A stretch of DNA of 64,000 bases. It comes from an uncultured candidate division Zixibacteria bacterium. Its GTDB lineage: Bacteria; Zixibacteria; MSB-5A5; RBG-16-43-9. The position numbers and the translations under genes are program-made. Positions 5,600 to 47,955 of the stretch are shown in pieces (position 1 is the first letter of the stretch; each line of letters opens with the position of its first letter). Location of the stretch: NCBI GenBank assembly GCA_963713865.1, contig OY970208.1, forward strand, positions 2,659,047 to 2,723,046, read 5' to 3'. The notes below the pieces were generated by a model. That model was not told where the DNA came from. It saw only the letters and a program-made list of their open reading frames with translations, and did no database searches.

Positions 5600-5650
5600 C
5601 CTTTCTGTTTTATTTTAAAATTAAATCAACTTCAACAAATGGAGGAATGG

Positions 5651-11388: not shown

Positions 11389-11453
11389 CTGGTTCCTCCT
11401 TTGGTCTTAAGATGAATTTTGAAAACACCAGAACGTCAAAATTAAGAGACCTC

Positions 11454-19303: not shown

Positions 19304-21730
19304 ATGAAAAATCGAAAAAGGTTTCTTGGTTTATTCTTCCTGCTCCTTCTTTTTATCACCACGGACCTGCTGGCCGATGCACCTGAGGAGGACAGAGTAA
19401 AAAGCATCGCCGCTTTCAGGTTAAATGATGGAGTTAAGATAGATGGGGTATTAGATGAGGACTGCTGGAGCAAAGCGGAAAAATCAGGCGGTTTTGTTCA
19501 GGCAGACCCTCACGACGGTGAGCCTGCCACTGAATCGACCTACGTGCAGGTTTGCTATGATAACGATGCACTTTACGCTGCGGTTACCTGTATGGAGAAC
19601 GAGCCTGAGAAGATAATAAAAATCCTGACCCGCAGAGACCGGTTCAGCGAAAGCGATGCGGTTAATCTCGGTATTGATTCTTACCACGACCACCAGACCG
19701 GTTATATGTTCAAAACCTATGCTTCCGGCACTCAATGCGATCTATATTATTATAGTGATGGCGCAGAGGACGATTCCTGGGATGCGGTTTGGGAGTCCGC
19801 GGTCAAGATTGGAAAAGACCACTGGACCGTTGAATATAAGATCCCTTTTTCCTGTTTGAGATTTCCCAAAAGTGACAGCTACACCTGGGGATTCTACGTT
19901 TCCCGGAATTTGTGCCATAATCAGGAAACCGCCCGCTGGGTGAGGATTCCTTCAAATCAAGCCGGATACGTGTCCAGATGGGGACATCTGACCGGGATCA
20001 AAGATATCGACCCTCCGGTGCATTTAGAGATTTTACCCTACGTAGTCTCCACGGAAAAAACCGAGCCTGAAAGATTGGGAAATCCTGATGGCAGAGAGCT
20101 TTTCGGAAATGTCGGGGTCGATATAAAATACGGCTTAACCTCGAATCTGACTCTGGATGCCACAGTTAACCCTGATTTTGGACAGGTGGAAATAGATGAG
20201 ATCGTGTTAAACCTCTCCAATTACGAGACTTTTTATCCGGAGAAAAGACCATTTTTCTTAGAGGGAAGCAAGATTTTCGAGCCGATCCAGAACCGACCTG
20301 TGTCAGCTTTTTTATTCGAGAAGAATCGGCAAAGACCCTGGATATGCGGATTCAGCCGAATACTATTTTCACCGTCCTACCTCCACCACGATTTTAGCCG
20401 CGGCAAAAATCACCGGCAAGACAAAAGGAGGGACGACTATCGGATTCCTCAACGCGGTCACTGACCGGGAAAATGCGGACTTCTGGCATGTAGACGGGTT
20501 CCGCACCAAAAGAGTAATCGAGCCAGAAGCAAATTATAACGTCATCAGACTCAGCCAGGACATCTTTAATAATTCATCCATCGGAATAATGAGCACTGCT
20601 GTCAACCAAAAAGGAAAAATCCCCTCGTATACCGGCGGGGTAGACTGGAACTTGCGTTTCCTAAAGCAAAACTATTCTTTTATAGGTCAGACCTACGGGA
20701 GCTCTAACGGAGAAAAGGAAAAAGGTCTGGGGTATTTGACCGCTCTGGGAAAAGATGGGGGGAAACACTGGAGGGGGAATATTGTCTGGTTTTATCTGGA
20801 CAAGAAAATCAATACCAATAGTCTGGGATATATGAAAAGGAACGATCTGCAGGGTGGCAGTGTGTGGATTCAATATAAGACCCAGAAAGAAGCCTGGATA
20901 ATAAGAAACTCCTGGAATAATTTCAACTTATCCTATGACTGCAACTTGAATCATGACCGTTCTGGATTGGGGTTTTAATTTTAACAGCTCAGTCGAGCTA
21001 ACCAATGGCTGGAATGTGGGAGGGGGGTTCTACAGTGATCTGGGCGTGACTTATACAGACTGGGAAGTTCCTTCCCAGCTTTTAAAAATCCCGATCGGAC
21101 GAAGCGGCTGGTTCAATTTATACACGGATGAAAGAAAAAAAGTCTCCGGAGGAATTGATTACAACCTGGGAAATTACTGGGATGGGCTTTCCGAGACTGT
21201 TGATCTCTGGGTTACCTTAAAACCCCGCTCCAATTTTGAGGTTACCCTGGAGCCAAATTGGAATCATATGTGGGACATAAGCCGGTTCGTCGGATATGCC
21301 CGGGATGCTTCTGATTCCTCCTCCCTTAATATCTTTGGGAAACAGAGAGTCAATCGAGCTGGTTTGGATCTGAGAGGAACTTATACTTTTACCAGGAATC
21401 TTACTATCCAGCTTTACACCCAATTCTTTCTCGCCACCGGAGAATACGATAACCTCGAGAGATTTTACCCAGTAGACAGGTTCTCTCCTTTGGGAAATAT
21501 TATTAATTTCTCCCCTTTCCGTGGAGATTTCAATCGAAGGGAATTTGCTTCCAACTTTATTCTGAGATGGGAGTATCGACCCGGCAGCACCTTGTATCTG
21601 GTTCTGGACCCAGGGAAGATATAATTATGACCCCGGTGATTTTAACCTGAGAAAGGGTTTCTCGCATTTGTTTGACACGATATCAGACAATATCTTTTTA
21701 ATCAAAGCCAATTACTGGTGGAACCTCTAA
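19304..21730 (+). CDS. DUF5916 / CBM9-like outer-membrane protein, split by several frameshifts
   Basis: Signal peptide, IDGVLDE, DDSWDAVW, TVNPDFGQVE, FYPEKRPFFLEG, RWEYRPGSTLYLV, terminal IKANYWWNL-stop at 21730; ORF pieces 19304, 20589, 20953. Confidence 0.8.
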
Positions 21731-30983: not shown

Positions 30984-31805
30984 TATATGTGCCTGTCGGG
31001 TCCCCTGACCCGACAGATAATTTCGTCCTAAGCGTGAAGAAAAGCTGTCCGCCAGCTCGGTGGACCTGACAGCCACAACTACAATATCTGTTTAATGCCA
31101 ATTATTAGGTGTCAGGAACACAGGACTCCTGACCCATTACTTAAAACGGATAAAATGACCCAGCCACAGCATAAATCCAATCATCACCACGTGCAAAATC
31201 CACCACCCGGTTCGTCCGCGAATAAAATATTTCAGCATTGGTTTATCTCCATAAAAAATGTCCCAGGGAAAACACCGCGGTAAGATAGATAAAATGTCTT
31301 ATCCACCAGCTGAGGGTAAACATCCGGCCTAATCCCGCGGGGTAAAAATGCGATAAAATCATCTGCCCGATGAAAAGCTTTGAGAAAAGAATCAGAATAT
31401 CCGCCAAGGTGGTTTTGAATATTACGCTGGCAAAAGTCAACGGCTCTGGCAATGCGTAAAGGCTGAAGGTGGCCATAGCAACTGCACCAATTATCACTCC
31501 CACCCCATTAAATAGATAGGCGATGATGACCGTTTTTTTGTAGTTGAACAACAGTGGCGTAAGAAGGACATCGAATAACCCAAGTAAAAAAGGTACAAAA
31601 TTGGATGGATTTACCGAAATGTGATGAATGCGAAAATGAAGCATCCATCCACCTAAAGATAAAAACACAAGTGCCAGGATCGGTCCTCTGATTTCTTTTT
31701 TGAATGTCATATCTTGCCTCCTTTCTGATAGTGCGGGAATATATGTGCCTGTTGGGTCCCCTGACCCGACAGGTAATTTCGTTCCGAGAGTGGACAAAAA
31801 CTGCT
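30984..31805. repeat. About 65-bp direct repeats (30984-31049, 31740-31805) built on the gtcgggtcccctgacccgac palindrome
   Basis: tatatgtgcctgt(c/t)gggtcccctgacccgacag(a/g)taatttcgt in both copies. Confidence 0.85.
31243..31710 (-). CDS. Hypothetical integral membrane protein
   Basis: RBS ggagg before ATG 31710 (MTFKKEIRG); about 5 hydrophobic segments. Confidence 0.7.
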   Translation of the reverse strand: MTFKKEIRGPILALVFLSLGGWMLHFRIHHISVNPSNFVPFLLGLFDVLLTPLLFNYKKTVIIAYLFNGVGVIIGAVAMATFSLYALPEPLTFASVIFKTTLADILILFSKLFIGQMILSHFYPAGLGRMFTLSWWIRHFIYLTAVFSLGHFLWR

Positions 31806-34672: not shown

Positions 34673-34842
34673 TGTTGTTGTCTGAGAAGCGGATCCAGAG
34701 CAAGTCTCCGCAGGATAGGAAAGGTTTACACCCCAGAGCCAAATTGTTAATAAAATCTAACTATAATCCCTATATTCTCCATTGCTTAAATGAAAACTTT
34801 CGTATAAATTCTTAATATATGAACCTTTTGAAAGGAGCCCTT

Positions 34843-35577
34843 ATGTCCTTTAAACGAAGATTCTCCTGGTTAATACCTGTTATCCTGCTGGTATTAATAC
34901 CCGTTACAACCTATGCCGTAAACAAAGAAGCCAAGAAGCATTTCGATGAAGCTATGAAGCTTCAGAATAAAGCTATCTCAAATGCTATTGATGAGCTCAA
35001 ACTGGCTATTAAGATCGATCCGAAATATACAGAAGCTCATTATCACTTAGGCACCCTCTATCATCAAAAGAAACTTTTTGATGAAGCTATGAAAGAATAC
35101 AAGATAGTGCAGAAACTAAATCCCAGATTCCCCAAACTAAATTATGTTATCGGGGCATTTTACTACACCCAGGGAGTCCTTGCCTGGACCAGAGCAGTTC
35201 AAATCGATAATAACTATCTTTACAAAGATGATGGTAAGCAGGTGTTTTACAAAAAAGGGACTGACCCGGAAAAAGCCATAAATCAATATAAAGAAATCAC
35301 AGATAAAGATACTATGGCTGTCTTAGCCTACTATAATCTGCGGGGAGTATATTACGATTTAGCCATCATAGAATATGAAAAAGCAGTCAAAGCTAACCCT
35401 AAGGATACCTCAGCCCAGTATGATTTAGGTCTGGTTTATTTAGAAAGAGGCAGACCCGACAAAGTCAAAGAACAATTAAAAATCCTTGAAAACCTTTCCC
35501 CTGGCCATGTCCAGGGACTGCAGCAGATGATTGATATGGAAGAAGCCCAGAAAAAAATGCTGAAAGGAAAGAAATAA
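34843..35577 (+). CDS. Secreted TPR-repeat protein
   Basis: RBS aaggag, signal peptide ending TYA, TPR motifs (EAHYHLGTLY, SAQYDLGLVY). Confidence 0.85.
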   Translation: MSFKRRFSWLIPVILLVLIPVTTYAVNKEAKKHFDEAMKLQNKAISNAIDELKLAIKIDPKYTEAHYHLGTLYHQKKLFDEAMKEYKIVQKLNPRFPKLNYVIGAFYYTQGVLAWTRAVQIDNNYLYKDDGKQVFYKKGTDPEKAINQYKEITDKDTMAVLAYYNLRGVYYDLAIIEYEKAVKANPKDTSAQYDLGLVYLERGRPDKVKEQLKILENLSPGHVQGLQQMIDMEEAQKKMLKGKK

Positions 35578-35636
35578 AAAGTGACATAATCAAGGATTTC
35601 TTAAAATAAATTTTCAATCCAGCTTTTTACAAAAAT

Positions 35637-35668
35637 AAAGAGCCAGTTAATTTTCACTGGCTCTTTTT
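35637..35668 (+). terminator. Intrinsic terminator, probably bidirectional
   Basis: aaagagccagt-loop-actggctcttttt. Confidence 0.75.
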
Positions 35669-35765
35669 ATCTATTGTTCATCCTTGGATTATTTTATTTA
35701 GACCATCTTGCGGATTTAAGTTAGAAAATAGAATAACCACAAAGGATGAATCTTTAAAAAAATAA

Positions 35766-35783
35766 GCGGAGAGGCAGGGATTT
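35766..35783 (-). repeat. tRNA-Ser 3'-end fragment, distal att-like boundary
   Basis: gcggagaggcagggattt versus cggagaggccgggattc of tRNA-Ser; adjacent ggtacaaaatggacaaaa arm-like repeat near 35914. Confidence 0.6.
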
Positions 35784-35962
35784 CTCTTAGGGTATTCGTG
35801 TAAGTCTTTATTTATCTTATAATCTCACATTTAAGTTTCGTTTCGCTTGGACTTAACTTTTTTGTTTCTTTTTGTTTGTTTTTGTCTCTTTTTATCTATT
35901 GATACTTCGTTCAGGTACAAAATGGACAAAAATAAAAAAACGAAAAACTATTTCCTACCCGT

Positions 35963-36424
35963 TTATTCTTTTCTATTGTTACGACTAAGAGCTATTCTCC
36001 ATAAGTCCAGTATTGGAGAATGGTTTGAATCTTGGTTTGGAAGTTTAAGCTCGCTATCTATTTTTTCCTTGATCTCCAGGTAATCATTTTTCACATTTTC
36101 CGGCATCAAAGACTCAAGTTTTGTTATGATCCTTTTCCGGGAGTCTCTCAGGACTGGATCCGATTCGATAATCTTGGAGTTCAATCCCAGATAGAGCGCC
36201 AAATATTCTTCTAAGGTAAAGTTTAAAGGTGGCAGGAAGGCATCCGTAAGATATTTATATCCGTTTTCAAAATAAATCGGTATATTAGCCCCAGAAATCG
36301 CCTTAATATCCCGGTAGATAGTCCTCTCCGACACCCCGCATTCTGAAGCCAAATCTTCAGCCCGCAGGTTTCTCCTTGCTCTCATTAGATTTAGAATCAG
36401 GAGCAACCGCTCTGCTTTATTCAT
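35963..36424 (-). CDS. HTH_11 transcriptional regulator of PafB/YafY (WYL) type, lacking the WYL domain
   Basis: MNKAERLL..., LASECGVSERTIYRDI, LPPLNFTLEE; stops where the WYL domain would begin. Confidence 0.8.
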   Translation of the reverse strand: MNKAERLLLILNLMRARRNLRAEDLASECGVSERTIYRDIKAISGANIPIYFENGYKYLTDAFLPPLNFTLEEYLALYLGLNSKIIESDPVLRDSRKRIITKLESLMPENVKNDYLEIKEKIDSELKLPNQDSNHSPILDLWRIALSRNNRKE

Positions 36425-36449
36425 TCAGGTTCCGTCTCAATGAATCAGA

Positions 36450-37199
36450 TCACATAACCGTTAATTCCAAAAATTTTTGATGCTTGATTAACCTTTCCGA
36501 AATAACCTGGCGTTTTATTAAATCATTGTCCCTGGTCAATGTTAACATTCTTTCTATCTCGCTCCCTAGCTCGTCAATATTGTTAGGCCAGTCATAATCT
36601 GAAAATAAGCAGAAAGCATCGATTGAGAATCCCAGCACCATGCGATTCTGCTTTTTATTCACAGACTCCAGAATGGTGCGCATTAAAGAAAAGAGCTCTT
36701 CCTTCCTGTGTCTTAAAGCCGGTATCTTGATCATCAGGGGGAAGAATTCCAAAAAGTGACCAAATGTAAAATCGTTCTTCTTGTTTCCGTTGCCATTCTT
36801 CTTCTCCTGGGAAGCAATTAAACCCAGCTGGTGGAACTGACTTCTGGAAAGCCCGAATCTTTTTGACTCGTTCTCCAGGAGCTCATAAATCTGGAGCTGT
36901 GCTTTTGAGTTCAAAAGGTCAATCCTTCGGAAAAAATAAGTATTCCTTTTCTGGTTGCTTAAATCTATTATTTTAGTTAAATGATTTTTAAACAGATCAT
37001 CTAAGACTTTGAGCTGGCTGGAATAGTCACATTCCCAGTCGAAAATAATAAAGTCCTTAGTCCAATTTCTTCTATCATGAATTAACTTGGCAAAATATTC
37101 TTTTCCTACTCCATTTTCACCTTCCAGGATCATATTTAAAGGCTGGGTTATTGCTAAGTCTAATTTTTTGTGAAACTCGTTAATTTTACTGTTGCTCAC
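36450..37199 (-). CDS. Degenerate sigma54-activator AAA+ domain protein without HTH
   Basis: GENGVGKE Walker A, IPALRHRKEE, YDWPNNIDEL; no GAFTGA, no Walker B DE, no HTH. Confidence 0.75.
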   Translation of the reverse strand: MSNSKINEFHKKLDLAITQPLNMILEGENGVGKEYFAKLIHDRRNWTKDFIIFDWECDYSSQLKVLDDLFKNHLTKIIDLSNQKRNTYFFRRIDLLNSKAQLQIYELLENESKRFGLSRSQFHQLGLIASQEKKNGNGNKKNDFTFGHFLEFFPLMIKIPALRHRKEELFSLMRTILESVNKKQNRMVLGFSIDAFCLFSDYDWPNNIDELGSEIERMLTLTRDNDLIKRQVISERLIKHQKFLELTVM

Positions 37200-37371
37200 T
37201 TTATTTTCGCTCCAAAAAAGTTATTCTTCTCTGTTAAAGCTTCGTTTTTTAAAAAGCCCCCCTTTTCACCTGGTCGTTTATGCCCATCTGAATCCTCCTT
37301 GACACAAACTCGATAAGCCTCTACCCCGACCAAGAGATAAAAAGAGTGGGTCCACCTTTTTTTCACGTCCC

Positions 37372-37584
37372 TTAACTCAGTGTTGTATAAAGAACTAAGG
37401 ATTCAAGAAAAGTGAGCGGTTGCTCAATTCCTAATGGAGGTGCCGAGTCAAGCCCATCCGCTGGCTGACCAATTCCATCCCCTCCATAAACTATTACTGG
37501 AACTGTTAAGACTAAGATTGCCAACAGTAGCACGGCCAAAATTAACCCGGCTACTCCCTTTTTCCTCTGAACAAGCTTTAGCAT
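37372..37584 (-). CDS. 70-aa secreted pre-peptide
   Basis: RBS aaaggag, MLKLVQRKK basic n-region, long hydrophobic h-region, VYG/GDG probable cleavage, Gly/Pro/Asp-rich mature part. Confidence 0.7.
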   Translation of the reverse strand: MLKLVQRKKGVAGLILAVLLLAILVLTVPVIVYGGDGIGQPADGLDSAPPLGIEQPLTFLESLVLYTTLS

Positions 37585-37640
37585 CTGTTTCTCCTTTAGA
37601 TGAAGTTGAAAAAACATTACTTTCTCTAAAGGTGAAGTAT

Positions 37641-37656
37641 TGCAAGAATGATACCA
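37641..37656 (-). promoter_or_regulatory. sigma54 (-24/-12) promoter
   Basis: TGGTATCATTCTTGCA = GG-N10-GC, about 56 nt upstream of the peptide ATG. Confidence 0.75.
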
Positions 37657-37923
37657 CTGTTCAGTTTTTTCAGAAGAGAATTAAAATAAACAGTTTATTT
37701 CATTGTGACAGTTATGGTTATGAGGTTGGTGATAGATTGAAAAAAAAGTAATTAATCAATCATCAGTGCTTATAACTCGCCGATTTCGACGAGCAAAATG
37801 AAGATAAGAATTTAATCAGTTGTAAAACTTAGAGTTAAGGAAGAGGAATTTATGACTTGATGGTTTCTTCTATAATAACACAGTCTAATTAATTGTTACT
37901 AAAGGAGATTACCTGATTGCTCG

Positions 37924-40900
37924 TCACTTTTGACGAATACCGGTTCGTGGTTTCTTAAATCTATGCTTTGCCATTTTTCTTCTTAAGGTAGCCTCACCTA
38001 TTCCCAATTGAAAAGCTGCCTTAACTTGATTCCAATTATTTTTCATTAATGCCTGGAGGAGCACCTCTCTTTCCAGATTCCCCAAAACTCTGGGCAAGCT
38101 CTCCTTTGAGGTAAGTAGTTTTATATCTCTTTGGATTTGTGATTTTGTTGGAAGGTATTCTTTTGGGAAGGAACCATCCTCGGAGAAGAGGACTGCTTTC
38201 TCCATTAAATTGGCCAGCTCTCTCACATTACCGGGCCAGGGATGATCGATTAAGACATTCATTACCTTCATCGGAATTGTTATCTTGGGTTTGTTGTTTT
38301 CCTGGGAGAACTTATCTAAGAAATAATCAATCAGATAAGGAATGTCCTCTTTTCTCTCACGTAAAGGTGGGATTTTAATTGTCACTGGATTTAATCTATA
38401 AAAAAGGTCTTTCCTGAAAACACCTTTCTTAATGCATTCCTCTAAATCTTTATTAGTGGCTGAGATTACCCGGATATCAACTTTGATAGTTTTGCTCCCA
38501 CCTACCCTCTCGAACTCTCTTTCCTGCAGCACTCTCAAAACCTTGGCTTGGGTGGAAAGACTCATGTCTCCGATCTCATCAAAGAATATAGTCCCTCCAT
38601 CTGCGTGCTTGAACTTTCCGTCTCTCATCGCTACCCCGGTTGCCACCTTTTCTTCTACACCAAAAAGCTCACTTTCTAAAATAGATTCAGGTAAGGCCGC
38701 ACAATTAACCTTTACAAAAGGCTTGCCTTTGCGAACACTGGTATGATGAATCAGATTGGCAATTAGCTCTTTACCCGTCCCGCTTTCTCCTAAAACCAGG
38801 ATACTGGTTTTGCTGTTAGCTACCTTGTCAACCATATGGAAAACATCCTGCATCTTCTTATTCTTGCCTACTATATTGGGAAAGCTGTAGGTTTTCCTCA
38901 GGTCTTTTTTCAACTGAAAGACTTCTTCATTCAGCTCGTTGTAAAGCTGGGCTTTTTCCAGGGCAACCGCTATCAAGTTAGCAAAAGCTTTAAGAAAATC
39001 TAGATCTTCTTTAGAGAGATTCCGCTCAGAGACCGGTGATCTACGTAGATTGTGCCTAAAATTTTGTTCTTGGTAGTTAAGGGTACACATAGAATAGAAA
39101 GTATATTATGGGTTATCACACTTTTATATAAACTGATCTCTGGATCGCGTCTGGTATCCTCAATTATTAAGGGTTCTTGAGTTCTGAGTACATCTTTGAT
39201 CACCTTTCGACTAATCTTTAAAGCGTCTGTTTTTGTTTCTATTTCTATCCCTCTTGTCATTTTCAGTTCTAAACCGTCATCTTTAGGGTTATAGAGTATA
39301 ACTGCTGCTCTCTCCGCGCTCAGATGTTCTATCGCTAAGTCTAAAATCTTGACTAAAAGCTCATCTAAATCTGTGATATTGTTTAAAAGTTCACTGATTT
39401 GATAAAGAACCTGGGCCCTCTGCTTGTCTATCTGGGTGGAATCAGAAAGCCCTCTAATCAAACTTTCACAATCGGAAACTTTTGCGGGGATTTCAAGGTC
39501 CTTGAATATAGCTAAAGCTTCTTTTAAGTATCCTTTGGCTTCTCTGTACTTTCCCTGTTCTGATCTTATTCTGCCAATATCCAGATAAGATATCCCGATA
39601 TCATATCTCATCTTTAAAGCTTTGAAAGCATCAACTGCTTCCAGTAATTCTCTCAAACCTTCTCCTGGTTTACCTTTTCGAATCAATAAGGCTCCGGTCA
39701 TTCTTTTGAATTTACCTGTTAGAGCTTTATCCTCAACCGATTTCAAAAGTTTTTCGGCATAGTTTAGATGTATCTCAGCTTCGATGGTATTATTCTGCCG
39801 GAGCTCTAATTCTGTTAAAGCAAGTGAAACCTCTAACATCTTCTTCACATTTTCCAGCGAATCATATAGCCTTAGACTTTCCTTCAGCTGAGACAAAGCT
39901 GTGGCAAAATCGCCAGCTTCCAGATTCAATTTCCCTAAAAGGTTAAAGCTGTCAGCCAACCCTGATTTATCATTCAATTCCTGTCTTAATCTCAAGCTTC
40001 TTTTCAGATAATTTCCAGATTTAGACCATTCTCCTTTCAAAAGATATATTTCACCAAGCCTGACGCAGGAATGAGCTACTCCCGGTTTATCTTCAAGATC
40101 CTGGAACAACCTTAAAGCTTTAGAATAATCTTCCAGGGATTTATTTAGCGACCCTCTCCTTAAACGAATTAGCCCCATATTGCAAAGGGTTATAGCCGTT
40201 CCGCTTTGATCTCCTGTTCTCTCTTTTAATTCATAGCTTTTCAGGTGGCATTCTAAAGACCTATCCCATTCGTATAGGCTTTCCCAGGTTATGGCTAAGT
40301 TATTATACAGAAAAGAGAGGTTAGTTATATTTCCATATTTTTGTTCAAGACGCAATGATTTTTCAAAATAGTCTAACGCTTCCTTTGACTCACCTTTACT
40401 GGTGCAAAGTAGTCCTAAGTTTATATAAACTATAGTTATACCTTTTTCATCCTTTAGTTCCTCGAAAACTTCTAAGCTCTTATTATAATAACTCAAGGCT
40501 TTATTGAACTCACTCAATTCCCAATTAACCACACCCAGAACCATTTAAGGCTAATCCTAACTCTTTAGAGTTTTCCTTCCCCAGTAACCCGATTGACTGC
40601 TGAAAACACAAGATGGCTTGGGGATGAGCTGACTTTCTCTGATAAGCCCAGCCTAAAGTGATATTCAATTCAACTGCTACTCTGGGAAATCGGACCCCAT
40701 CGCATAAAGAAAGACCTTCCGTTAAAATCTCAACGGCTTTCTCATATTCACCTTTCCTGAAATAAAGGAGTCCTGTTTCTTGATAAAGCTTTGCTATCCT
40801 ATCTGGGGTTTGTTCTTCTTGTTTACAGATTTTGACCGCTTCGGAATAATACGCCAAAGCTTTATCGAAATTTCCCGTGACAACATATTGTTTGCCAAGT

Positions 40901-42954
40901 TTAGCCAATACCTCTTCTTTTGAGGAAAGGATACCCTTAATTCCAAACTCGTAGAGCTTTAACGCATTTTCATAATGTTTGATAGCATCCAGATGGTTAT
41001 TCTCTTTTTCAGCTTTTCCCCCGGCTAAAAAGGAATACTTCAAAGCCTGCTCTTTATTTTCAGCCTGGAAGAAATGGTAAGCCAGACTATTGACCATTAA
41101 ATCATCTCCAGAAGAATAAAACTTTTCCAGAACTTCGCCACACTTTTCGTGTAACCCTTTTCTTTTACCTTCATCCATTTTAAGGTAAATAAAATCTTTT
41201 ACCAAACCGTTAACGAACCCCAGTTTTTTCCCAACTGAAGTTAATTTTTCTTCCAAAAGCCTCTCTGAGAACAATAATGTCAGACCTTCCTCTATCTCCT
41301 CTTTACCATAACCTGCAACCTGATGTAGTATCTCCAGTTCAAATTCTTCTCCTAAAACTGAAGCTGTTTCTATTAAATTAAAAGTCCCAGGAGACAGCCG
41401 GGCTAATCTTCCTTTAATCTGTGAACCATAACTTTCCGGGACATTTATCTTATTAAATCCCTCTGGATTTAACTCCCAGCTGTAACCTGACCTTTTCAGG
41501 TATCCCTGCTCTGCTAATGAGTTCAACGAGGAGACGATTAAGAGAGGGTTCCCACCGGTCTTTCTATGAATGTTCTGACCGATTTTTCCCGGGTCATTCT
41601 TCCATGTTATTATCGAACTTATTAACTGCATAGTCTTTTTTTCACTAAAAGGCTTTAAAGCTATTTTAGTGAGAGATTTCTTTAAATTGGAGCCTAATAT
41701 TGCACCAACCTCCTGTGCCTTTTTATCATCTTCTGAAAGGGTCAGGTTGTTATCCAGGGCAAAACAGATTAAAAATTTCTCTTTTTTCGTTTGGTTCAAC
41801 CAGTTAATCAAGGAATCAAGAAGTTTCAAATTTACCTTTTGAAAATCATCCATAATCAAGACCAGAGGATGGGTCTGAATTGAAAGACTTTGAAGCTCTG
41901 GAAAAAGCATCTCACCAGATTCAGCCATATTTTTCCAGATAACTAACCCTCCCTGAATCTGGACAAAATTTTTGAACTCTTTTAAAAGTCTTGTTTTTCC
42001 AACTCCCCATTCACCTTCCAAGCGGATAACCTCTGCCCGCCCGCACTTCACCTCTTCAAAATGATGTTTAAACAGTGAAAAATCTTCTTCCCGTCCGATG
42101 AAGTCATCTGAAGCCGTCAAGCTTTTGATAAGATTTGAATCAACCTCTTCCAGTTTAATCCCGGAAGCCTGCTCGATCTCTTCTCTAAGCTCTCTGGCTG
42201 AATAACACCGATCTAAAGGGTCCTTTTTAAGTAATTTCAAAACCTGCTGCTTGAGTGATTCGGGAATATTCAAATCCCCTGGGAATTCTGGTTCTTTTTC
42301 CAGATGACCTTTGGCGATGCTCATTAGATCAGATTCCTCAAACGGGAGTCTGCCAGCCAAAACCTCATACAGCATCACTCCTAAGGAGTACAGGTCAACC
42401 TGATGGTTATACTCTTCCCCCCTGATGATCTCCGGAGCAAGGTAAGGGATAGTGCCTTTCCAATAAGGCTGTTCAGCCACTTTTCCATATTCAGCAAAAC
42501 CGAAATCGGTGAATTTTACTGCTGGATTGCCTTCTTCATCCGAGGAAATCAAAACATTGGAAGGCTTGATGTCGCCATGGATTATTCCTTTGCTGTGGAG
42601 AAACTCTAAAGTCTTCAATATCCCGATTAAAATCTGATGAAACTTTTGGTAATCTACCTCCTTGAAATATCCCCTAAAATCCTTTCCCTCAATAAAGTCC
42701 ATTGAGAAAAAAGGGTTGCCATCACTCGTAAACCCAAAATCAAATACTTCGACCAGGTTGGGATGTTCGATCTGGCTTAAGAGGAGAAATTCCTTTTTAA
42801 ATCGTTCGACATCTTCCTGTTCTTCAGAGCAAAGCACTTTCAGCGCAACTATCCTCTGTTCTATGACATCCCGAGCTTTGAAGACGTTACATATAGTTCC
42901 CTTCCCTGTTAACTGAGCGATTTCGTATCTCGAAGAAATATGATAATCAGACAT
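37924..42954 (-). CDS. Multidomain protein of about 1670 aa: Ser/Thr kinase, P-loop NTPase (STAND-like), TPR array, GAF, sigma54 AAA+, Fis HTH; split by frameshifts near 40535 and 39015
   Basis: HGDIKPSN/DFG/APE; GEWGVGKT; many TPRs; GAF (SILCVPL...GTIYVD); GESGTGKE, FFDEIGDM, FRKDLFYRL, WPGNVREL; NWNQVKAAFQLGI. Confidence 0.88.
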
Positions 42955-43130
42955 AGCTATATATTTAGCTGGTTTAGCTCTTTCTTATATGGTTCTTTGT
43001 AAATATAAGGATTTCTATTATTTTTATCCAGCTTTTTTTACATAATTTTATGTCATTAAGATATTTTGACAATCTATTTAAAAATCAGACTGTGATGGGG
43101 AATATCAAAATATTTGCAGAAAATAAAAAA

Positions 43131-43148
43131 CGGAGAGGCCGGGATTCG
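43131..43148 (-). repeat. tRNA-Ser 3'-end fragment
   Basis: cggagaggccgggattcg identical to 47623-47640. Confidence 0.85.
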
Positions 43149-43176
43149 TCCTCAGATTCTGTCTTCGACCATGAGC

Positions 43177-43472
43177 TCAGACCGAATGGAGCGAATCCGC
43201 AGGATGAGTCGAAGAAAACCTATCTATTAACCATCCTTTTTTCCCCGACGCCAGCTTTTAAGTTGAGCCTCTTTTTTGCGGGCGCTTGCGTAGTTTTCTT
43301 GCTATTCCGTATAAACTAATTTAACTGGTTTTCGCTTTTTTGTAAAAGCTGACCCCTGTCCAGCATTATGCTCTCTAACTCTATCCTCAACATCTGTTGC
43401 AACGCCAACATAATAAGAGCCATCGTTACAACTTAAGATATAAGCAAACCATGATCGAGAAATATTGTTCAT
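43177..43472 (-). pseudogene. GIY-YIG nuclease pseudogene (not in ORF track)
   Basis: Manual translation MNNISRSWFAYILSCNDGSYYVGVATDVEDRVREHNAGQGSAFTKKRKPVKLVYTE*QENYASARKKEAQLKSWRR; TAG at 43302-43304 plus frameshift near 43240. Confidence 0.85.
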
Positions 43473-43735
43473 TTCAGCCATTCGGCAAGCTCAGGGCCAT
43501 TGTCTTCGACAATGGCGGGGAGTTTGGGACAACTTTAGAGTTTCTTTACTCTGAAGTAAAGAGGTTATGGAGATGCCTTCTTTTTAATCGTCCAGTGTTT
43601 TCCAGGCGAATAAACTCTATCAAACCAAGAGTTCTCATTCTTTAGTCTGAAGCCAGAAATCTCTTGCATTTTGTATCCGTTTTTCGTATAAAACACTGAT
43701 TATGTCTACCGAAATTCAGTCAAAGGAGGTGACCG

Positions 43736-44383
43736 ATGAGGTCCACGAAAGCAGTAGCAACGATTGAGGTGATTCTAATTTTGGCCGTGGTAGTTTCACT
43801 TATGGTCGTGGGTGGCTGTGGCTCGACTCAGCTCGTCAATCTTTGGAAGGATTCCTCATACAATGCCGCACCATTGAAAAAGGTCCTGGTTGTCGCTATG
43901 CGCAAGGATCAACTCAGGCGCCGCATGTGGGAAGATGCCTTCGTTTTAGCGATTGAAGGTCACAAAGCTGGAACGGTTGTAGTCCCTTCTTACCAGCTCT
44001 TCCCGGAGGGAGTTCCCGACACCCTGGCCATACAGACGAAGACGAGAGAGGAAGGTTTCGATGGTGTTCTGGTAGTCGCCAGGGTCAAGCGTGATACGCT
44101 CAAGACAGATGTGCCAAGCTTCACAACGTATGAGCCTGTCTCTGTATATAAGCCAAGGTGGAAGACCTATGTAACGTATTATGATAGCGTGTACCATCCT
44201 GGTTACACTGAGTCTCAAGCCGAAGTCAGTGTGCGAACAGATCTCCTGCTGGCACAAAAAGAGGGCAGGCTGGTGTGGTCAGCCACAAGTAAGGAGATAG
44301 ATCCGGCTTCTCCTGACCAATTCAGAAATTCCGTTGCCGATATAGTGACGGATCAACTGATGAAAGCCCGTATTGTCCATTAA
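43736..44383 (+). CDS. Hypothetical lipoprotein
   Basis: RBS aaggagg, lipobox-like GGC, KKVLVVAM, GFDGVLV, LVWSATS. Confidence 0.75.
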   Translation: MRSTKAVATIEVILILAVVVSLMVVGGCGSTQLVNLWKDSSYNAAPLKKVLVVAMRKDQLRRRMWEDAFVLAIEGHKAGTVVVPSYQLFPEGVPDTLAIQTKTREEGFDGVLVVARVKRDTLKTDVPSFTTYEPVSVYKPRWKTYVTYYDSVYHPGYTESQAEVSVRTDLLLAQKEGRLVWSATSKEIDPASPDQFRNSVADIVTDQLMKARIVH

Positions 44384-44564
44384 TCGTGCTTCATTATTCT
44401 GAATATTGGTCAATTGCTAGGTCCAAGGCAGACTGAATGCTTGAAAGAAACTTGGGTGTGCTGATAGAATGGCTGAATAGTAGGTCTTTCGGCTGAGACT
44501 TAATGTCTTTTCAGATATTAAGTTGGACTACGTGAATAACATTGCTTCCCGTTCCTTGCCATAC

Positions 44565-44587
44565 GTGGGGCCGACGAGACTCGAACT
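44565..44587 (-). repeat. 3'-end fragment of a different tRNA
   Basis: Reverse complement AGTTCGAGTCTCGTCGGCCCCAC (T-loop plus acceptor strand only). Confidence 0.5.
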
Positions 44588-44657
44588 ACTCACCCAGTAG
44601 TTCCTGTAAAGGTCAAATCTGAATGTGCTCTTAAGTTGTTATGGGGCAAATAATCAA

Positions 44658-44809
44658 GCGGAGAGGCCGGAATTCACCGTTAGGTCCTGTCTTCAACCAT
44701 GAGCTCAGACCGAATGGAGCGAATCCGCAGGATGAGCCGAATGGAATCCGCTAATTAACCAGTCTTCCTTTTCTCTTCGCCAGTCTTGAAGTTGAGCCTC
44801 TCTTTTTAG
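44658..44809 (-). pseudogene. 3' remnant of a GIY-YIG gene (44705-44809) plus palindrome and tRNA-Ser 3' fragment (44658-44675)
   Basis: LKREAQLQDWRREKEDWLISGFHSAHPADSLHSV*; about 150-bp repeat of 43131-43277. Confidence 0.8.
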
Positions 44810-44932
44810 TGTTCTGTCAGGTCCTAGAACTGACAGCAATCTGTGTCAGGAGTAGCTCCTGACACAACTGGTAAAATCCAACCAGTGTCGCCACAATCAA
44901 TAAACAATAAATTGCATCATTTGTCCCGCAAA

Positions 44933-45532
44933 TTACACATCCAATACCATAATCCTACGGGAGAAATCAAAGTAATAGTGTTGGCGAGGGGGTCTTTGTA
45001 TTAAACTCTTATTTGCAGAAGGATGATACCAAAACTCGATATCAAGTGTTAGGAGTTTTTCCGTAGAAGTACCATATTCCATGTCTTCAATATCCTCCAA
45101 AACATGACCTGCTTTCTCTAAAATGCCCCTTATATCGAAATGCCCTCTAGCGCCACTCATCGGCTGAACAGTGAATGGCCACTCGCCATTATAAAACCCA
45201 CCCAGTGATACGGGTTTGTCGAGGACAAGTGCATGGAGGTTACACCAACAGTCTACTGTATGTTTGCTAGGGTTGTTAATGATAAAAAGCAAATGGTAAG
45301 GGTCGTTGGGGAGTGGTTCTAGTATGAAAGATGAGCTTAGAGTCCAAGCATCCTTTGCCAGTAGATATGTGAAGTACACGTAGGCCAATAGCGCTGCTAA
45401 AGTGAGAACTAAAGCAAAGTCCGCAAAATCTCTAAGAGGTTCAAAATTATTGAAAATTTTGAGGAGTAAACCTATAACCCCCATACTGAGCAATAACACT
45501 ATGGCTGCTATAAGCGACTTCGGAAGTTTCAT
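44933..45532 (-). CDS. Hypothetical membrane-anchored protein
   Basis: 199-aa ORF, two N-terminal TMs, RBS aggag. Confidence 0.65.
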   Translation of the reverse strand: MKLPKSLIAAIVLLLSMGVIGLLLKIFNNFEPLRDFADFALVLTLAALLAYVYFTYLLAKDAWTLSSSFILEPLPNDPYHLLFIINNPSKHTVDCWCNLHALVLDKPVSLGGFYNGEWPFTVQPMSGARGHFDIRGILEKAGHVLEDIEDMEYGTSTEKLLTLDIEFWYHPSANKSLIQRPPRQHYYFDFSRRIMVLDV

Positions 45533-45596
45533 TTTAAATTATCATCTCCTATTTTTATTAAAGATATCTGTCAAAATAAAATCCATTTTACCCAAG

Positions 45597-46289
45597 TCAT
45601 GGCCCAATCAAATGAATGAATTTCCCAAGTAGATTTTTAACAAGTTCCCAAAGTCGGCTCGCTTCTTGAGGAGCCATAGCAAGTCCCATTGCAATTGTTA
45701 TAAGAACACCTATGCAGGTATGAACCCAATCGAAACGACCTTGACGCTTAGCAGCGTCTGCTAAATAGTCGAGTTTTTGACTTACAAATTCATTTTGTTC
45801 GCTTGATAGCTTAAATTGTTTTTTTATCTCTCGTTTCAACAAGTTCAATGCTTTAATAATTTGTTCCACTTCATATGCAGGTATGGGTTCATTCAAGAGC
45901 TTAAACTTGGTAGGCAAAGATAACGAAAATGTAGTCTGATATTTTTCCAGTTCCTGCCAAAAGTCTGGAGCATCAATTCCTTTCTTTAGGCAGGATGCCC
46001 AAATTTTTGCAAAGTATAATTGACTATCCCAATCGAGCGGTTCAGCGGTCTGGACCTTCATATCATTCCCAGGTGAATATTCGCAGAGGTGATACCCATC
46101 CTTACCAGAAAAATCAAATTGATAATAAAAGTCAGTATCTCGATATGTTAACCTATTAACAATTAAATAACTTGCATATATACTGGCTTCTTCAGACCAT
46201 CTAAAATCAGCGGATTCTAAACCTTCCTTCTGAAGTATCTCGAATATTTTATTCTTTTGTGTTTTTAGAAGTAATAGTTTTTCAGCCAT
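45597..46289 (-). CDS. Hypothetical protein with C-terminal hydrophobic segment
   Basis: 230-aa AT-rich ORF; no family recognised. Confidence 0.65.
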   Translation of the reverse strand: MAEKLLLLKTQKNKIFEILQKEGLESADFRWSEEASIYASYLIVNRLTYRDTDFYYQFDFSGKDGYHLCEYSPGNDMKVQTAEPLDWDSQLYFAKIWASCLKKGIDAPDFWQELEKYQTTFSLSLPTKFKLLNEPIPAYEVEQIIKALNLLKREIKKQFKLSSEQNEFVSQKLDYLADAAKRQGRFDWVHTCIGVLITIAMGLAMAPQEASRLWELVKNLLGKFIHLIGP

Positions 46290-46414
46290 CTATTCTTGCC
46301 TTTCTACTAAATTATTGATTAGCTTCTTTAAATCGCATGCCTAATACCATGCCCAAAATATCTCGTGTTTGAAAAGAATCAAATCCCTTTTCAATAATTA
46401 ACCCGAAAGAGCGA

Positions 46415-47212
46415 CTATTTAGTTGGTTTTTTGGCTTTAGTTTTCAAAAATCTTAAAATGTCTTCAGCTTCTTCCCTTGAATATACTTTTGACGATGTGT
46501 TGTGCTCGTGCAATTCGAGGTACTTTGTCAATTGATTTTTATCCAACAGCATATGTTGGGTAAGCTGTCCATTAATTACTACAAATTCTGGCTTTACTAC
46601 TATCGGAGTCGTAGTATAACGAGCCCAATAATAAGTATCGTACAAGACATGGGATTCATTCTCGTAAAGAAAAAGAAAATGCATCGTAAATTTGTTCTTT
46701 TCAATGAACCTTACAGTATGCGATACAACAAAAGATGTTGTATCACCCGGTCTGACTTCTCTGAGCCAGAAATAGTCCAAAAAAGGAGAGACTTTAATTC
46801 CTTTTTCTCTTGCCTTCTTGTCCAAAAGGAGTTCTCTAATTTTTGGCTCACCCGATAAAGTATCCTGCCAGGCAAATGCATACACTCTGGCTCTTGAATT
46901 GCCAACATTAGTTACTTTTAATTTGGCATGTATTGTAAGAAAAGAACGAATATCAATTGTATCTGAGCGTGACTCATATAACTTTGATACAGGCATTTTC
47001 TCACTCGCAAGCTCAAAGGAATCAATTTCAGGGCTTCCAATTACATCTAAACAAGGTCTAAACTCTAAAGCTTTACTTGTGTAGTTTAATTCTTCAATCT
47101 TTTTATCCTGAGAGCATCCACGAATCAAAGCAATTGATGAAAAAATCAATGAAATTAAGACTGCAGATAACGACACCCAGTCTTTAAATTCGAGTTTTTT
47201 TATAAATATCAT
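46415..47212 (-). CDS. Hypothetical protein with N-terminal TM
   Basis: 265-aa AT-rich ORF; no family recognised. Confidence 0.65.
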   Translation of the reverse strand: MIFIKKLEFKDWVSLSAVLISLIFSSIALIRGCSQDKKIEELNYTSKALEFRPCLDVIGSPEIDSFELASEKMPVSKLYESRSDTIDIRSFLTIHAKLKVTNVGNSRARVYAFAWQDTLSGEPKIRELLLDKKAREKGIKVSPFLDYFWLREVRPGDTTSFVVSHTVRFIEKNKFTMHFLFLYENESHVLYDTYYWARYTTTPIVVKPEFVVINGQLTQHMLLDKNQLTKYLELHEHNTSSKVYSREEAEDILRFLKTKAKKPTK

Positions 47213-47254
47213 AGCAGAGTATTTGTGAATTCGATTTGCAAGTAATTAGCAAAA

Positions 47255-47334
47255 TGGCGGAGAGGCCGGGATTCGAACCCGGGGTACCGTTTCCGGTACA
47301 ACTGCTTATCCCGCCAGCGGCGGGACTTCAGCCA
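47255..47334 (-). repeat. tRNA-Ser pseudo-copy with anticodon region replaced by a palindrome
   Basis: tggcggagaggccgggattcgaacccggggtaccgtttccggtacaactgctta[tcccgccagcggcggga]cttcagcca. Confidence 0.9.
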
Positions 47335-47606
47335 TCTTGTTTATTGTTAATTTTACGTTTAGAGAAACTGGACAACAATCGTATGAATGCTTCCCCTCCT
47401 TTGTAACTTTTTATCTCCTTTTCCCGTCTCATGGCATCAGCTCGAGATGAACATTCCTCCACGTAAACCACCTCAAACTCACCGCGATTTTTCATTGATT
47501 TGGTCTCACCACGGGAATGTTTCTCTAAACGTTTTGCTATATTTTGTGTTTGTCCTATGTAATGCCGTCCCGTTTTCTTTATCCTGAGCACATATACGTA
47601 ATACAT
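47328..47606 (-). CDS. GIY-YIG nuclease family protein (92 aa)
   Basis: MYYVYVLR...HYIGQT...RLEKH...AMRREKEIK; true start ATG 47606. Confidence 0.9.
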   Translation of the reverse strand: MYYVYVLRIKKTGRHYIGQTQNIAKRLEKHSRGETKSMKNRGEFEVVYVEECSSRADAMRREKEIKSYKGGEAFIRLLSSFSKRKINNKQDG

Positions 47607-47622
47607 AGCGGTTAGCAAAAAA

Positions 47623-47709
47623 CGGAGAGGCCGGGATTCGAACCCGGGGTACCGTTTCCGGTACAACTGCTTAGCAGGCAGCTGCCTTCAGCCACTCGGC
47701 CACCTCTCC
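47623..47709 (-). tRNA. tRNA-Ser (GCT)
   Basis: GGAGAGGTGGCCGAGTGGCTGAAGGCA-GCTGC-CTGCTAA-GCAGT, long variable arm, GGTTCGAATCC, CCTCTCCG. Confidence 0.95.
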
Positions 47710-47955
47710 GGAAGACAGTTTGGAGTTGGGAGTCTGGAGTTTGAAGAATCCATCTCCCCCACCCCCAAAATGATATGATTAAATGCTATATAAAAAGAAA
47801 AACATCGAAAAGCAAATTCTTTTTGTTCTATTTGTCCTCGAGTATAATCTTATCTGACTGATTTTAGCTATCAGTGAAATGGGTGGAGACCCTAAAATCT
47901 GGCTTTCTCAAAGCTCAACCAGCTCCACCCCTAAACAATATCTCACAAGTTACTT

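Follow-up and report, generated by a model that had tools for sequence, protein, structure and literature searches.

The last 64 kb of the single 2.72-Mb contig of an uncultured Zixibacteria bacterium (OY970208.1; this stretch of 64 kb, at its full length, is called the window throughout) contain six open reading frames (ORFs) on the minus strand between positions 35963 and 42954. A sequence-only reading of this DNA had suggested that they encode a sigma-54-dependent signalling circuit, in which a giant regulator senses a small secreted peptide and activates the operon of the peptide gene. The locus raises the questions of whether these genes belong together, whether the regulator serves the promoter next to it, and to what it may respond. 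The parts were recovered in the order that had been given, all of them on the minus strand: a gene whose product carries, by Pfam searches, Pkinase, an AAA_16 P-loop, an extended TPR array, GAF, Sigma54_activat with its lid and the Fis-type helix-turn-helix (HTH) HTH_8, followed by a GG-N10-GC promoter, an ORF of 70 amino acids (aa), a gene for an AAA+ protein and an HTH gene. In this assembly the giant gene is divided among three ORFs, with Pkinase, AAA_16 and TPR matches in the first, TPR and GAF matches in the second, and Sigma54_activat, AAA_lid_14 and HTH_8 matches in the third. We conclude, with a probability of roughly 60%, that the cassette is a self-contained, horizontally mobile regulatory unit of ~7.5 kb, whose giant activator drives the adjacent sigma-54 operon. 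Its features are the following (positions in the window):

35581 to 43119, minus strand: whole inserted cassette, ~7.5 kb, without counterpart at the same site in the sister genome G001.
37924 to 42954, minus strand: giant activator gene, ~1676 aa on read-through, three ORFs here.
40525 to 42954 (809 aa), 39000 to 40544 (514 aa) and 37924 to 39090 (388 aa), minus strand: the abutting ORF pieces of the activator gene.
42202 to 42927, minus strand: protein kinase domain (Pfam Pkinase, E 2.8e-47, residues 10-251 of the first ORF).
39495 to 41064, minus strand: TPR array (Pfam TPR_12, TPR_1, TPR_2, TPR_MalT), running across frameshift 1.
39033 to 39374, minus strand: GAF domain (Pfam GAF, E 3e-11).
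38137 to 38874, minus strand: sigma-54-type AAA+ domain and lid (Pfam Sigma54_activat, E 1.2e-65; AAA_lid_14).
37966 to 38082, minus strand: Fis-type HTH (Pfam HTH_8, E 3.9e-11).
37921 to 37936, no strand: dyad 1, TCGTCAAAAGTGACGA, overlapping the activator stop codon; candidate enhancer site.
37776 to 37793, no strand: dyad 2, CTCGTCGAAATCGGCGAG, one arm degenerate here; ~120 nt upstream of the -24 element.
37641 to 37656, minus strand: -24/-12 (sigma-54) promoter, TGGTATCATTCTTGCA, 72 nt before the ATG of the peptide gene.
37375 to 37584, stop codon at 37372 to 37374, minus strand: gene for a pre-peptide of 70 aa, behind an AAAGGAG ribosome-binding site.
36450 to 37199, minus strand: AAA+-like paralogue, 249 aa (partial matches to Sigma54_activat and AAA_lid_14).
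35963 to 36424, minus strand: HTH_11 regulator, 153 aa (Pfam HTH_11; matches the N-terminal half of WYL-type regulators).

Forty relatives were searched with the first activator ORF, eight of them belonging to the window's own family, designated f1, 20 to a second family, f2, and 12 to other families or classes. A single-copy orthologue of the activator was detected in five f1 and 17 f2 genomes (22/28 together) and in 0/12 of the remainder; wherever the contig permits, the gene is one intact ORF of ~1650-1705 aa. Loci on sufficiently long contigs were fetched from 15 of the 22 genomes (G005, G014, G019, G020, G024, G028 and G030 were left out), and all counts out of 16 given below refer to these 15 relatives plus the window. 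The activator gene is followed by a peptide ORF of 68-73 aa and an AAA+-like gene of ~250 aa in each of the 15 fetched loci. A homologue of the HTH gene lies directly 3' of the AAA+-like gene in 13 of them, while in L022 it has another position and in L020, where a stretch is masked, none was found. Among 201 sampled genomes of the phylum, 14 possess the AAA+-like gene (5/7 of f1, 8/10 of f2, and 0/183 genomes of 17 other families). The public records of the relatives' proteins bear Zixibacteria names. When contigs were scanned with the AAA+-like alignment, only two true cassettes were among the 80 loci kept, the rest being ordinary enhancer-binding proteins (EBPs); the back-translated patterns of the scan were too generic and were used for two record titles only (Zixiibacteriota, one labelled Ignavibacteria). 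The cassette is confined to the two families f1 and f2 of uncultured Zixibacteria. A second AAA+-like copy, 54% identical to that of the window, was seen in G004 (L015, 9421-10176), ~850 nt past the first one.

The GG-N10-GC promoter proposed ahead of the peptide gene is present at 37641-37656, and the same box (GGCAY-N5-TTGCA) was found 63-74 nt before the peptide ATG in 14 of the 16 loci. In the relatives, a strong GGAGG ribosome-binding site lies downstream of it. The initial reading would have been in difficulty with homologues devoid of an adjacent peptide gene and box; with the gene order kept 15 times out of 15 and this frequency of the box, a peptide gene with a -24/-12 element directly downstream of the activator is a conserved arrangement. 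Within the 64 kb, TGGTATCATTCTTGCA is the sole match to TGGYAY-N5-TTGCW, which by itself is not significant (0.24 matches expected by chance; at least one in 22 of 100 shuffles). The promoter call carries weight because the box is conserved across the loci, and not on account of the lone match in the window. Apart from the promoter and a TCGTC-N6-GACGA dyad, the intergenic regions of f1 and f2 do not align. Exact CGTC-N6-GACG occurs in 13/16 loci at site 1, the activator stop codon, and in 9/16 at site 2, ~100-130 nt upstream of the -24 element; in most of the non-exact loci, the window included, one arm of site 2 is degenerate. The f2 loci contain a third, weaker dyad between the two. The exact TCGTC-N6-GACGA 16-mer is found once in the 2.72-Mb genome, at 37921-37936 of the window, which fits a dedicated activator. 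Thus, judged by position and conservation, the dyads have the appearance of an enhancer serving a dedicated EBP, and they are candidate sites for either of the two HTH proteins. The genome has one rpoN gene, so that a -24/-12 promoter with upstream dyads at the operon and rpoN, as expected for EBP systems, are found together.

The activator itself was also examined for conservation. Invariant in 14 orthologues were the kinase residues (K, E, HxD, DFG), the STAND P-loop (G-x-G-K) and, in the EBP part, Walker A (G-x-G-K-E) and Walker B (D-E). The protein possesses a Sigma54_activat-type AAA+ domain with both Walker motifs intact and, in the manner of STAND proteins, AAA_16 (E 4.1e-9) followed by a repeat sensor, TPR_MalT (E 1.2e-11). 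Compared with genus mates, identity is 80-91% in the kinase and the initial part of the NTPase and 80-98% in the GAF-AAA+-HTH portion; it is 48-78% in the fastest-evolving part, residues ~390-1170, which comprise the remainder of the STAND module together with the TPR array. In the same genome there are 27 matches to the kinase-bearing first ORF, several of which are kinase-STAND-TPR proteins of ~1250-1300 aa without an EBP part.

The L1 loop of the AAA+ domain is unusual. Aligned to solved chains, it reads G-V-E-E-K-V-A-T-G-V, compared with G-H-E-K-G-A-F-T-G-A in NifA and ZraR; it is one residue shorter, and Thr-Gly is kept while Phe is replaced by Ala. The 12 database relatives with the AAA+ part (at least 33% identity) have E-[ED]-[KR]-x-A-T-G-V too; G[AS]FTGA is retained in five more remote proteins that share the overall architecture. 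As far as Francke et al. (2011, PMC3162934) deal with this motif in the relevant part of their article, changes of the central Phe or Thr in GAFTGA mostly abolish activation, and homologues with a defective GAFTGA (TyrR, DhaR, HupR) work with sigma-70. Similar L1 variants may already stand among the defective-GAFTGA homologues in additional file 3 of that article. A literature search for GAFTGA variants brought up nothing but unrelated articles.

Several points weigh against an activator that fires the adjacent promoter. The box deviates in 2/16 loci, with TG for GG in L013 and GA for GC in L016. The GAFTGA loop with its central Phe and Thr, a defining trait of the EBP family, is replaced by E-E-K-x-A-T-G-V, devoid of Phe, in all 16 loci, and by the criteria published in the relevant part of PMC3162934 the missing Phe predicts a loss of sigma-54 activation. 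A sigma-54 factor co-adapted to the variant loop is unlikely, since the genome has a single rpoN gene and eight other EBPs with canonical GAFTGA (18 other full-length EBP matches and eight exact GAFTGA-coding sites were counted). Finally, the activator reads as three ORFs in this assembly, and the circuit would be dead in this strain if the indels were real. The giant protein might instead be a dyad-bound repressor or a sigma-70-type regulator in the manner of TyrR, DhaR or VpsR, the promoter being fired by another EBP. Such a role is suggested by the uniformly Phe-less loop next to distant proteins of the same architecture that keep G[AS]FTGA, by the classification of such variants as non-functional for sigma-54 in the part of PMC3162934 concerned with them, and by the availability of other EBPs, at least eight of the 18 being canonical. 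We nevertheless regard it as quite improbable. The strict conservation of Thr-Gly, of both Walker motifs and of the rest of the AAA+ domain would be unexpected for a mere DNA binder. Moreover, the gene takes its promoter and dyads along to every insertion site, so that a host EBP would have to serve a mobile promoter; a site for another EBP was not seen, and the exact dyad occurs nowhere else in the genome. Because Thr-Gly and the whole ATPase are conserved and the promoter and dyads move with the gene, activation of the sigma-54 promoter by the variant L1 loop appears to be the likelier reading.

Whether the split of the activator gene is real was studied at its two frameshifts:

40539, minus strand: frameshift 1, one extra base, a surplus T in GGTTCTG.
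39016 to 39018, minus strand: frameshift 2, one base missing in ATCTCTCT.

Contigs of four public runs (X1, X4, X7, X8) were compared over 37300-43000. One 12-kb contig of X1 spans this whole stretch, with 195 other letters in 5701, while X4 and X7 give no cover at 39016-39018. At 40539, one base is absent from the contigs of X1, X4 and X7, and a contig of X8 with a depth of 2 covers the place without a gap. At 39016-39018, the contigs of X1 and X8 each contain one extra base, which differs between them. The two frameshifts are private to this assembly, and we consider them probable single-base indel errors of the assembly. Genes elsewhere in the window are split in a similar way (a GH38 mannosidase, an ammonium transporter and a DUF5916 protein), and the completeness of the assembly is 94% for a closed genome compared with 98% for a genus mate in 90 contigs, which argues for indel errors. 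If the frameshifts are assembly errors, no repair is implied. A crude count of overlapping ORF pairs, too noisy to weigh, gave 137 in 2.72 Mb (50/Mb) for this genome, five in 0.196 Mb (26/Mb) for the relatives' loci and 466/Mb in high-GC loci.

The indels could also be real mutations, the activator a pseudogene and the circuit in this strain a decaying relic, a possibility that we take to be doubtful though serious. It would explain the frameshifts at face value; in addition, the X8 contig of depth 2 lacks the one-base gap that three other runs have at 40539, comparison with genus mates showed five other genes of this genome to be unbroken, and the C-terminal HTH of the activator is out of frame in one relative (G032) too. 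However, X1 contigs of close strains restore the frame at both sites. No other decay was seen, the three pieces being open and 72-93% identical to those of genus mates, at least three further genes of the window show the same kind of split, and the difference in completeness mentioned above points in the same direction. As to the other split genes, the GH38 mannosidase (window 7385-11388) has its N domain in one ORF and its mid and C domains in the next, with an overlap of 210 nt; the ammonium transporter (5639-6550) is cut at profile position 288 of 399, and the DUF5916 protein (20589-21624) is in two pieces.

The cassette is a true mobile insertion. The earlier statement that the unit lies between tRNA-Ser 3' fragments was confirmed by the following repeats:

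43131 to 43146, plus strand: tRNA-Ser 3'-end repeat on the activator side, exact.
35767 to 35782, plus strand: tRNA-Ser 3'-end repeat on the HTH side, one mismatch.

The true tRNA-Ser(GCU) is located at 47622-47710, and further copies of its 3' end were found at 44659 and 47258. Altogether the window contains five matches to the 16-nt repeat, compared with 0.02 expected, and 0 of 100 shuffles reached this number. The GC content is 0.36-0.41 inside the cassette and 0.42-0.47 in the flanks. In G001 (L112), the counterpart of window 34774-35580 abuts the counterpart of window 43120-43170. As the flanks are contiguous there, window 35581-43119 is an insertion; past the junction G001 has a GIY-YIG remnant, tRNA-Ser and asnA, and its empty site holds a single repeat copy. 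The cassette of G001 itself lies between tRNA-Lys(UUU) and an AMP-binding gene. At the reciprocal place of the window genome, tRNA-Lys(UUU) (983009-983082) and the AMP-binding gene (981049-982842) are 167 nt apart, with no cassette between them. G002 carries its cassette at the tRNA-Ser site as the window genome does, with the same repeat ~180 nt before the activator gene, and yet its activator is 90% identical to that of G001 and 76% identical to the first ORF of the window. The window activator shares 72-76% identity with those of genus mates, compared with 83-94% for five core genes flanking the G001 and G002 cassettes. In G032, the cassette resides between tRNA-Met and a perfect 45-nt copy of the tRNA-Met 3' half, beside a Phage_integrase fragment of 203 aa. 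A quick maximum-likelihood tree of 15 activators split the genera g5 and g10 across clades (SH-aLRT 99-100).

Thus, direct repeats derived from tRNA 3' ends flank the insert and a relative has the empty site, as is typical of integrative islands. Pfam revealed no integrase among the ORFs between 35581 and 43119; a fragment beside the cassette was present in G032 only. Flanking direct repeats of at least 13 nt were likewise found only in G032 among the 15 relatives, several of whose contigs end too near the cassette to judge. The idea of a mobile unit inserted at tRNA-derived repeats was borne out by the empty site in G001, the reciprocal tRNA-Lys site and the 45-nt repeats of G032. In the latter genome (L017, 499-9417) the cassette is part of an 8.8-kb island, just outside of which lies a gene for an OPT oligopeptide transporter (10169-12148), and the final ~27 codons of its activator gene, which specify the HTH, lie out of frame with the rest.

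The 3' side of tRNA-Ser(GCU), window 43120-47710, is an insertion hot spot. It contains an exact 51-nt copy of the tRNA-Ser 3' half (47258-47308), a truncated GIY-YIG ORF (43302-43481) and a 111-nt repeat, 81% identical, at 43128-43238 and 44656-44766. A segment of ~3.8 kb (43495-47252) with four ORFs has no counterpart in the tRNA-Ser locus of G001, and none of these four ORFs gave a match in PADLOC, PHROGs or Pfam. In G002, a phosphofructokinase gene lies between two tRNA-Ser fragments.

We also analyzed the products of the putative sigma-54 operon. In f2, the stop codon of the peptide gene is separated by 1-29 nt from the start of the AAA+-like gene, so these two genes are read as one operon; in f1 the spacer measures ~150-500 nt. 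At E <= 0.001, a profile of the 16 peptides picked up 42 representatives from 1.84 billion proteins; almost all of these are 64-77 aa long and matched by the profile from end to end. The 70-aa ORF belongs to a real protein family. Its members have a basic N-terminus, a hydrophobic core, a helix breaker and a small-x-small site (VYA|DG, VLA|DG or AYG|GDG, and VYG|GDG in the window). By this pattern, the N-terminus is predicted to be a cleavable Sec signal peptide. Further on come a DGGGGQ(W)P-like motif, an acidic stretch rich in Gly, Pro and Ser, and a hydrophobic C-terminus of 12-15 residues, past which there are no basic residues. A small pro-peptide gene with a signal-peptide-like pattern adjoins the activator in 16/16 loci, as in RRNPP or AimR-type systems. 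Pfam, NCBIfam, PADLOC and PHROGs contain no family for the peptide, and a Protein Atlas search gave unnamed clusters only (scores 0.80-0.84, below the lead level of 0.9). The peptide is not a lipoprotein, the Cys of the hydrophobic core being absent from the f1 and some f2 members, and it does not carry a PEP-CTERM, LPXTG or GlyGly-CTERM sorting signal, whose known patterns include basic residues after the C-terminal hydrophobic stretch. Among the best-supported single-nucleotide polymorphisms (SNPs) of close strains, at least nine lie in the last ~50 nt of the peptide gene, and none of those listed lies in the preceding 190 nt. At least 14 of the listed SNPs fall into the 86 nt of window 37342-37427, the tail-coding end and the 3' flank, and none into the 190 nt of 37428-37617, where the signal peptide and the adjoining motif are encoded.

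The second product had been described as a degenerate AAA+ protein, and this was correct. Walker A (GE-x-G-V-G-K-E, invariant) and the lid are kept, the D-E of Walker B is replaced by an invariant R-R, the L1 loop region is deleted and an HTH is absent. Its 27 database clusters are all metagenomic and bear generic EBP names. From these features we would expect the paralogue to join the activator ring and to damp it, providing negative feedback. The third product had been assigned to the WYL family, which holds by descent and not for the domain itself. The HTH protein matched the PADLOC model of a WYL regulator at positions 1-122 of 229 (E 7.7e-24), and Pfam WYL follows HTH_11 in 6/6 tested f2 orthologues. 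By contrast, Pfam WYL gave no match in the 153-aa protein of the window or in 2/2 f1 orthologues; the f1 proteins, 132-153 aa in length, have HTH_11 alone.

Taken together, we propose the following model. The giant cytoplasmic protein would be made from its own sigma-70-type promoter and would receive its inputs through the Hanks kinase, the STAND P-loop with the fast-evolving TPR array, and the GAF domain. Its Fis-type HTH would bind the TCGTC-N6-GACGA dyads, located at the activator stop codon and ~100-130 nt ahead of the promoter, and the AAA+ ring, despite its odd L1 loop, would switch on the adjacent -24/-12 promoter, from which one three-gene operon would be transcribed. The first product is likely to be a Sec-exported peptide of ~36-42 aa with a hydrophobic C-terminal tail. 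The second, a presumably catalytically dead AAA+ paralogue without L1 loop and HTH, would enter the activator ring and damp it, and the third, an HTH(-WYL) regulator, might carry the output or close the loop. The peptide is one candidate for the signal that the sensor perceives.

According to the sequence-only reading, the peptide is the signal: once exported and processed, its hydrophobic tail would be re-imported and bound by the TPR array, the activator would be turned on and more peptide would be made, resulting in a mobile quorum- or arbitrium-like loop. TPR residues 600-1180 and the mature peptide, each as an alignment of 14 rows, were co-folded, giving a score of 0.50 (runs 0.56, 0.50 and 0.44) compared with 0.02 for the best of three controls, which the tool terms 'weak support'. 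The runs share at least 63% of the contacts, and the partner has a pLDDT of 46-48. In the calibration, the mark was reached by 58/80 solved complexes and 2/110 mismatched pairs, and scores of 0.60 or less were those of seven of the 80 solved complexes and of both passing mismatches; by the tool's own account, such a weak pass turns out wrong in most cases in which the pairing was not likely beforehand. Covariation was assessed by pairwise distances between parts of the peptide and six activator regions in the 16 loci. The correlations were 0.44-0.98 and high for every region; in 55 f2 pairs, the mature peptide correlated with the TPR region at r 0.77 and with the NTPase region at 0.76, and the signal-peptide part correlated with the TPR region at 0.79. 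The co-variation that had been suggested as a check is not specific to the TPR region. As the correlations are high everywhere and the TPR array is not singled out, phylogeny dominates. The window and G004 have near-identical tails (distance 0.09) and TPR arrays that are 0.39 apart, the corresponding values for the window and G002 being 0.36 and 0.30.

Other observations agree with a peptide loop. The receptor gene adjoins a small peptide gene that is seemingly under its control in 15/15 relatives, the N-terminus of the peptide looks like a cleavable signal peptide, no other part of the receptor diverges as fast as the sensor region, and the listed SNPs cluster in the tail-coding end. One OPT-family oligopeptide transporter is encoded in the genome, not linked to the cassette, and the cassette is mobile and polymorphic, like rap-phr and arbitrium systems. 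Against this stand the ambiguity of a weak co-folding pass without a strong prior, the unspecific covariation, and the fact that the window and G004 share the tail and not the TPR sequence. An Opp-type binding protein (OppA) was not found in this genome, nor a processing protease or exporter in the cassette. Among the Pfam or NCBIfam matches of the three ORFs, none relates the receptor in sequence to RRNPP or AimR proteins, and PF18768, which we take to be the RNPP C-terminal family, was not seen among the entries listed in the precomputed domain lists of P0070-P0083. Since the host lineage is presumably diderm, the peptide would also have to cross two membranes. We therefore consider the peptide loop rather unlikely. 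Somewhat less likely still is peptide communication in full, i.e., that in a diderm uncultured phylum the tail returns and is bound by the TPR array, a Phe-less L1 loop drives its own -24/-12 peptide operon, and the alleles are pherotype-like.

The fast divergence of the sensor region would also suit a conflict or defence cassette, in which the STAND-TPR part detects a protein of an invader, the hydrophobic-tailed peptide acts as a membrane effector, and uninfected cells are spared its action by the dead paralogue together with the WYL-type repressor. The unit is mobile, adjacent to tRNA genes, low in GC and patchy within genus g3; WYL-type regulators, STAND, TPR and kinase parts are common in defence loci, and besides the WYL regulator match (E 7.7e-24) the kinase matched the PD-T4-6 and mad6 models of PADLOC. 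These kinase matches, however, are generic for Hanks kinases, and no model fits the peptide or the whole cassette. A single copy in 22/28 genomes of two families is a high frequency for a defence system, the peptide combines a cleavable-signal pattern with an acidic Gly/Pro-rich body and does not resemble a two-helix membrane toxin, and the neighbouring insertion is without a recognisable defence or phage gene. A defence function is thus, in our opinion, very unlikely, and we retain the mobile regulatory unit with an operon controlled by its own activator as the preferred interpretation.

Two further features were noticed at the ends of the cassette:

43045 to 43072, minus strand: sigma-70-like promoter, TTGTCA-16-TAAAAT, ~90 nt before the activator ATG (10/12 consensus positions, a consensus match only).
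35637 to 35666, no strand: two-way terminator-like hairpin with an 11-bp stem, beyond the HTH gene.

Elsewhere in the window, a 64-nt repeat, 86% identical, occurs at 30984-31047 and 31740-31803 and holds the GC-rich hairpin CTGTCGGGTC...GACCCGACAG. Each copy follows one of two neighbouring ORFs of ~185 aa, one of them encoding a DUF6886 protein.

The cassette is a real, undescribed, mobile variant of sigma-54 control. No account of the combination (RRNPP-like with sigma-54; an EBP with kinase, TPR and GAF; sigma-54 in Zixibacteria) was found in the open literature, subscription journals and supplements being outside the scope of the search, and this agrees with the initial view that the combination is new. 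Public annotation gives these genes generic EBP names, such as 'Nif-specific regulatory protein' or 'sigma 54-interacting transcriptional regulator'. EBP-type motors without the Phe form a whole natural clade here that has kept its conserved -24/-12 promoter and dyads. Nature may offer an exception to the rule that Phe is essential; otherwise, such promoters must be served in an as yet undescribed way. To our knowledge, poison subunits of the EBP type are known only from laboratory mutants. A co-transcribed EBP paralogue with a dead Walker B and without L1 loop would be a genetically encoded poison subunit and possibly a new feedback design. Furthermore, a 7.5-kb unit that consists of regulators plus a peptide predicted to be secreted moves from one tRNA site to another in the same genus and looks like the elements that talk to each other or to their host; a comparable system outside the Firmicutes and their phages was not described in the open literature that we reached.

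Several known systems share parts of this design. With RRNPP and arbitrium (AimR/AimP) systems the cassette has in common a TPR-bearing cytoplasmic regulator that adjoins the gene of a secreted pro-peptide, which it appears to control, the location on a mobile element, and the variability of peptide tail and sensor. In contrast to them, it has no sequence kinship, its TPR array belongs to a STAND NTPase, its output is a sigma-54-type AAA+ motor and not a plain HTH or phosphatase, and its host is presumably a diderm non-Firmicute. By its sequence, the cassette seems to resemble RRNPP and arbitrium systems in layout only. The N-terminal part is similar to STAND regulators of the MalT, AfsR and PknK type, as indicated by the Pkinase, AAA_16 and TPR_MalT matches, and a kinase-STAND-TPR chassis with GGDEF or cyclase outputs occurs in other metagenomic proteins. 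Here, unlike in those proteins, the chassis is fused to a GAF domain plus an EBP motor, and a dedicated promoter and peptide gene go with it. The third gene recalls WYL regulators of defence and mobile loci, in which HTH_11 precedes WYL as in the 6/6 tested f2 orthologues and to which the PADLOC match also points, whereas the window and f1 copies (132-153 aa) are without a detectable WYL domain.

The Psp system comprises PspF with its inhibitor PspA and the small membrane proteins PspB/C, and HrpR/HrpS are a co-acting pair of EBPs. Like Psp, the cassette has a dedicated EBP, and the operon codes for a presumed modulator of it as well as for a small envelope protein; like HrpR/HrpS, it combines two paralogous AAA+ proteins. 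No homology to Psp proteins was seen in the Pfam and NCBIfam matches, and the modulator differs from that of Psp: it is itself an AAA+ protein resembling EBPs, in which Walker B is dead and the L1 loop missing, and not a PspA-type coiled coil. Another close likeness is to the GAF-bearing EBPs of the NifA, NorR and FhlA type, which have GAF, AAA+ and Fis-HTH in the same order, dyads upstream of a GG-N10-GC promoter, and rpoN present; NifA is the best solved match to the activator (E 5.9e-87). Compared with them, the giant protein possesses ~1190 additional N-terminal residues (kinase, STAND P-loop and TPR array) and lacks the GAFTGA Phe, its operon contains a small peptide and two regulators only, and the whole unit is mobile. 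We predict that the cassette works like an EBP-controlled sigma-54 operon with built-in feedback.

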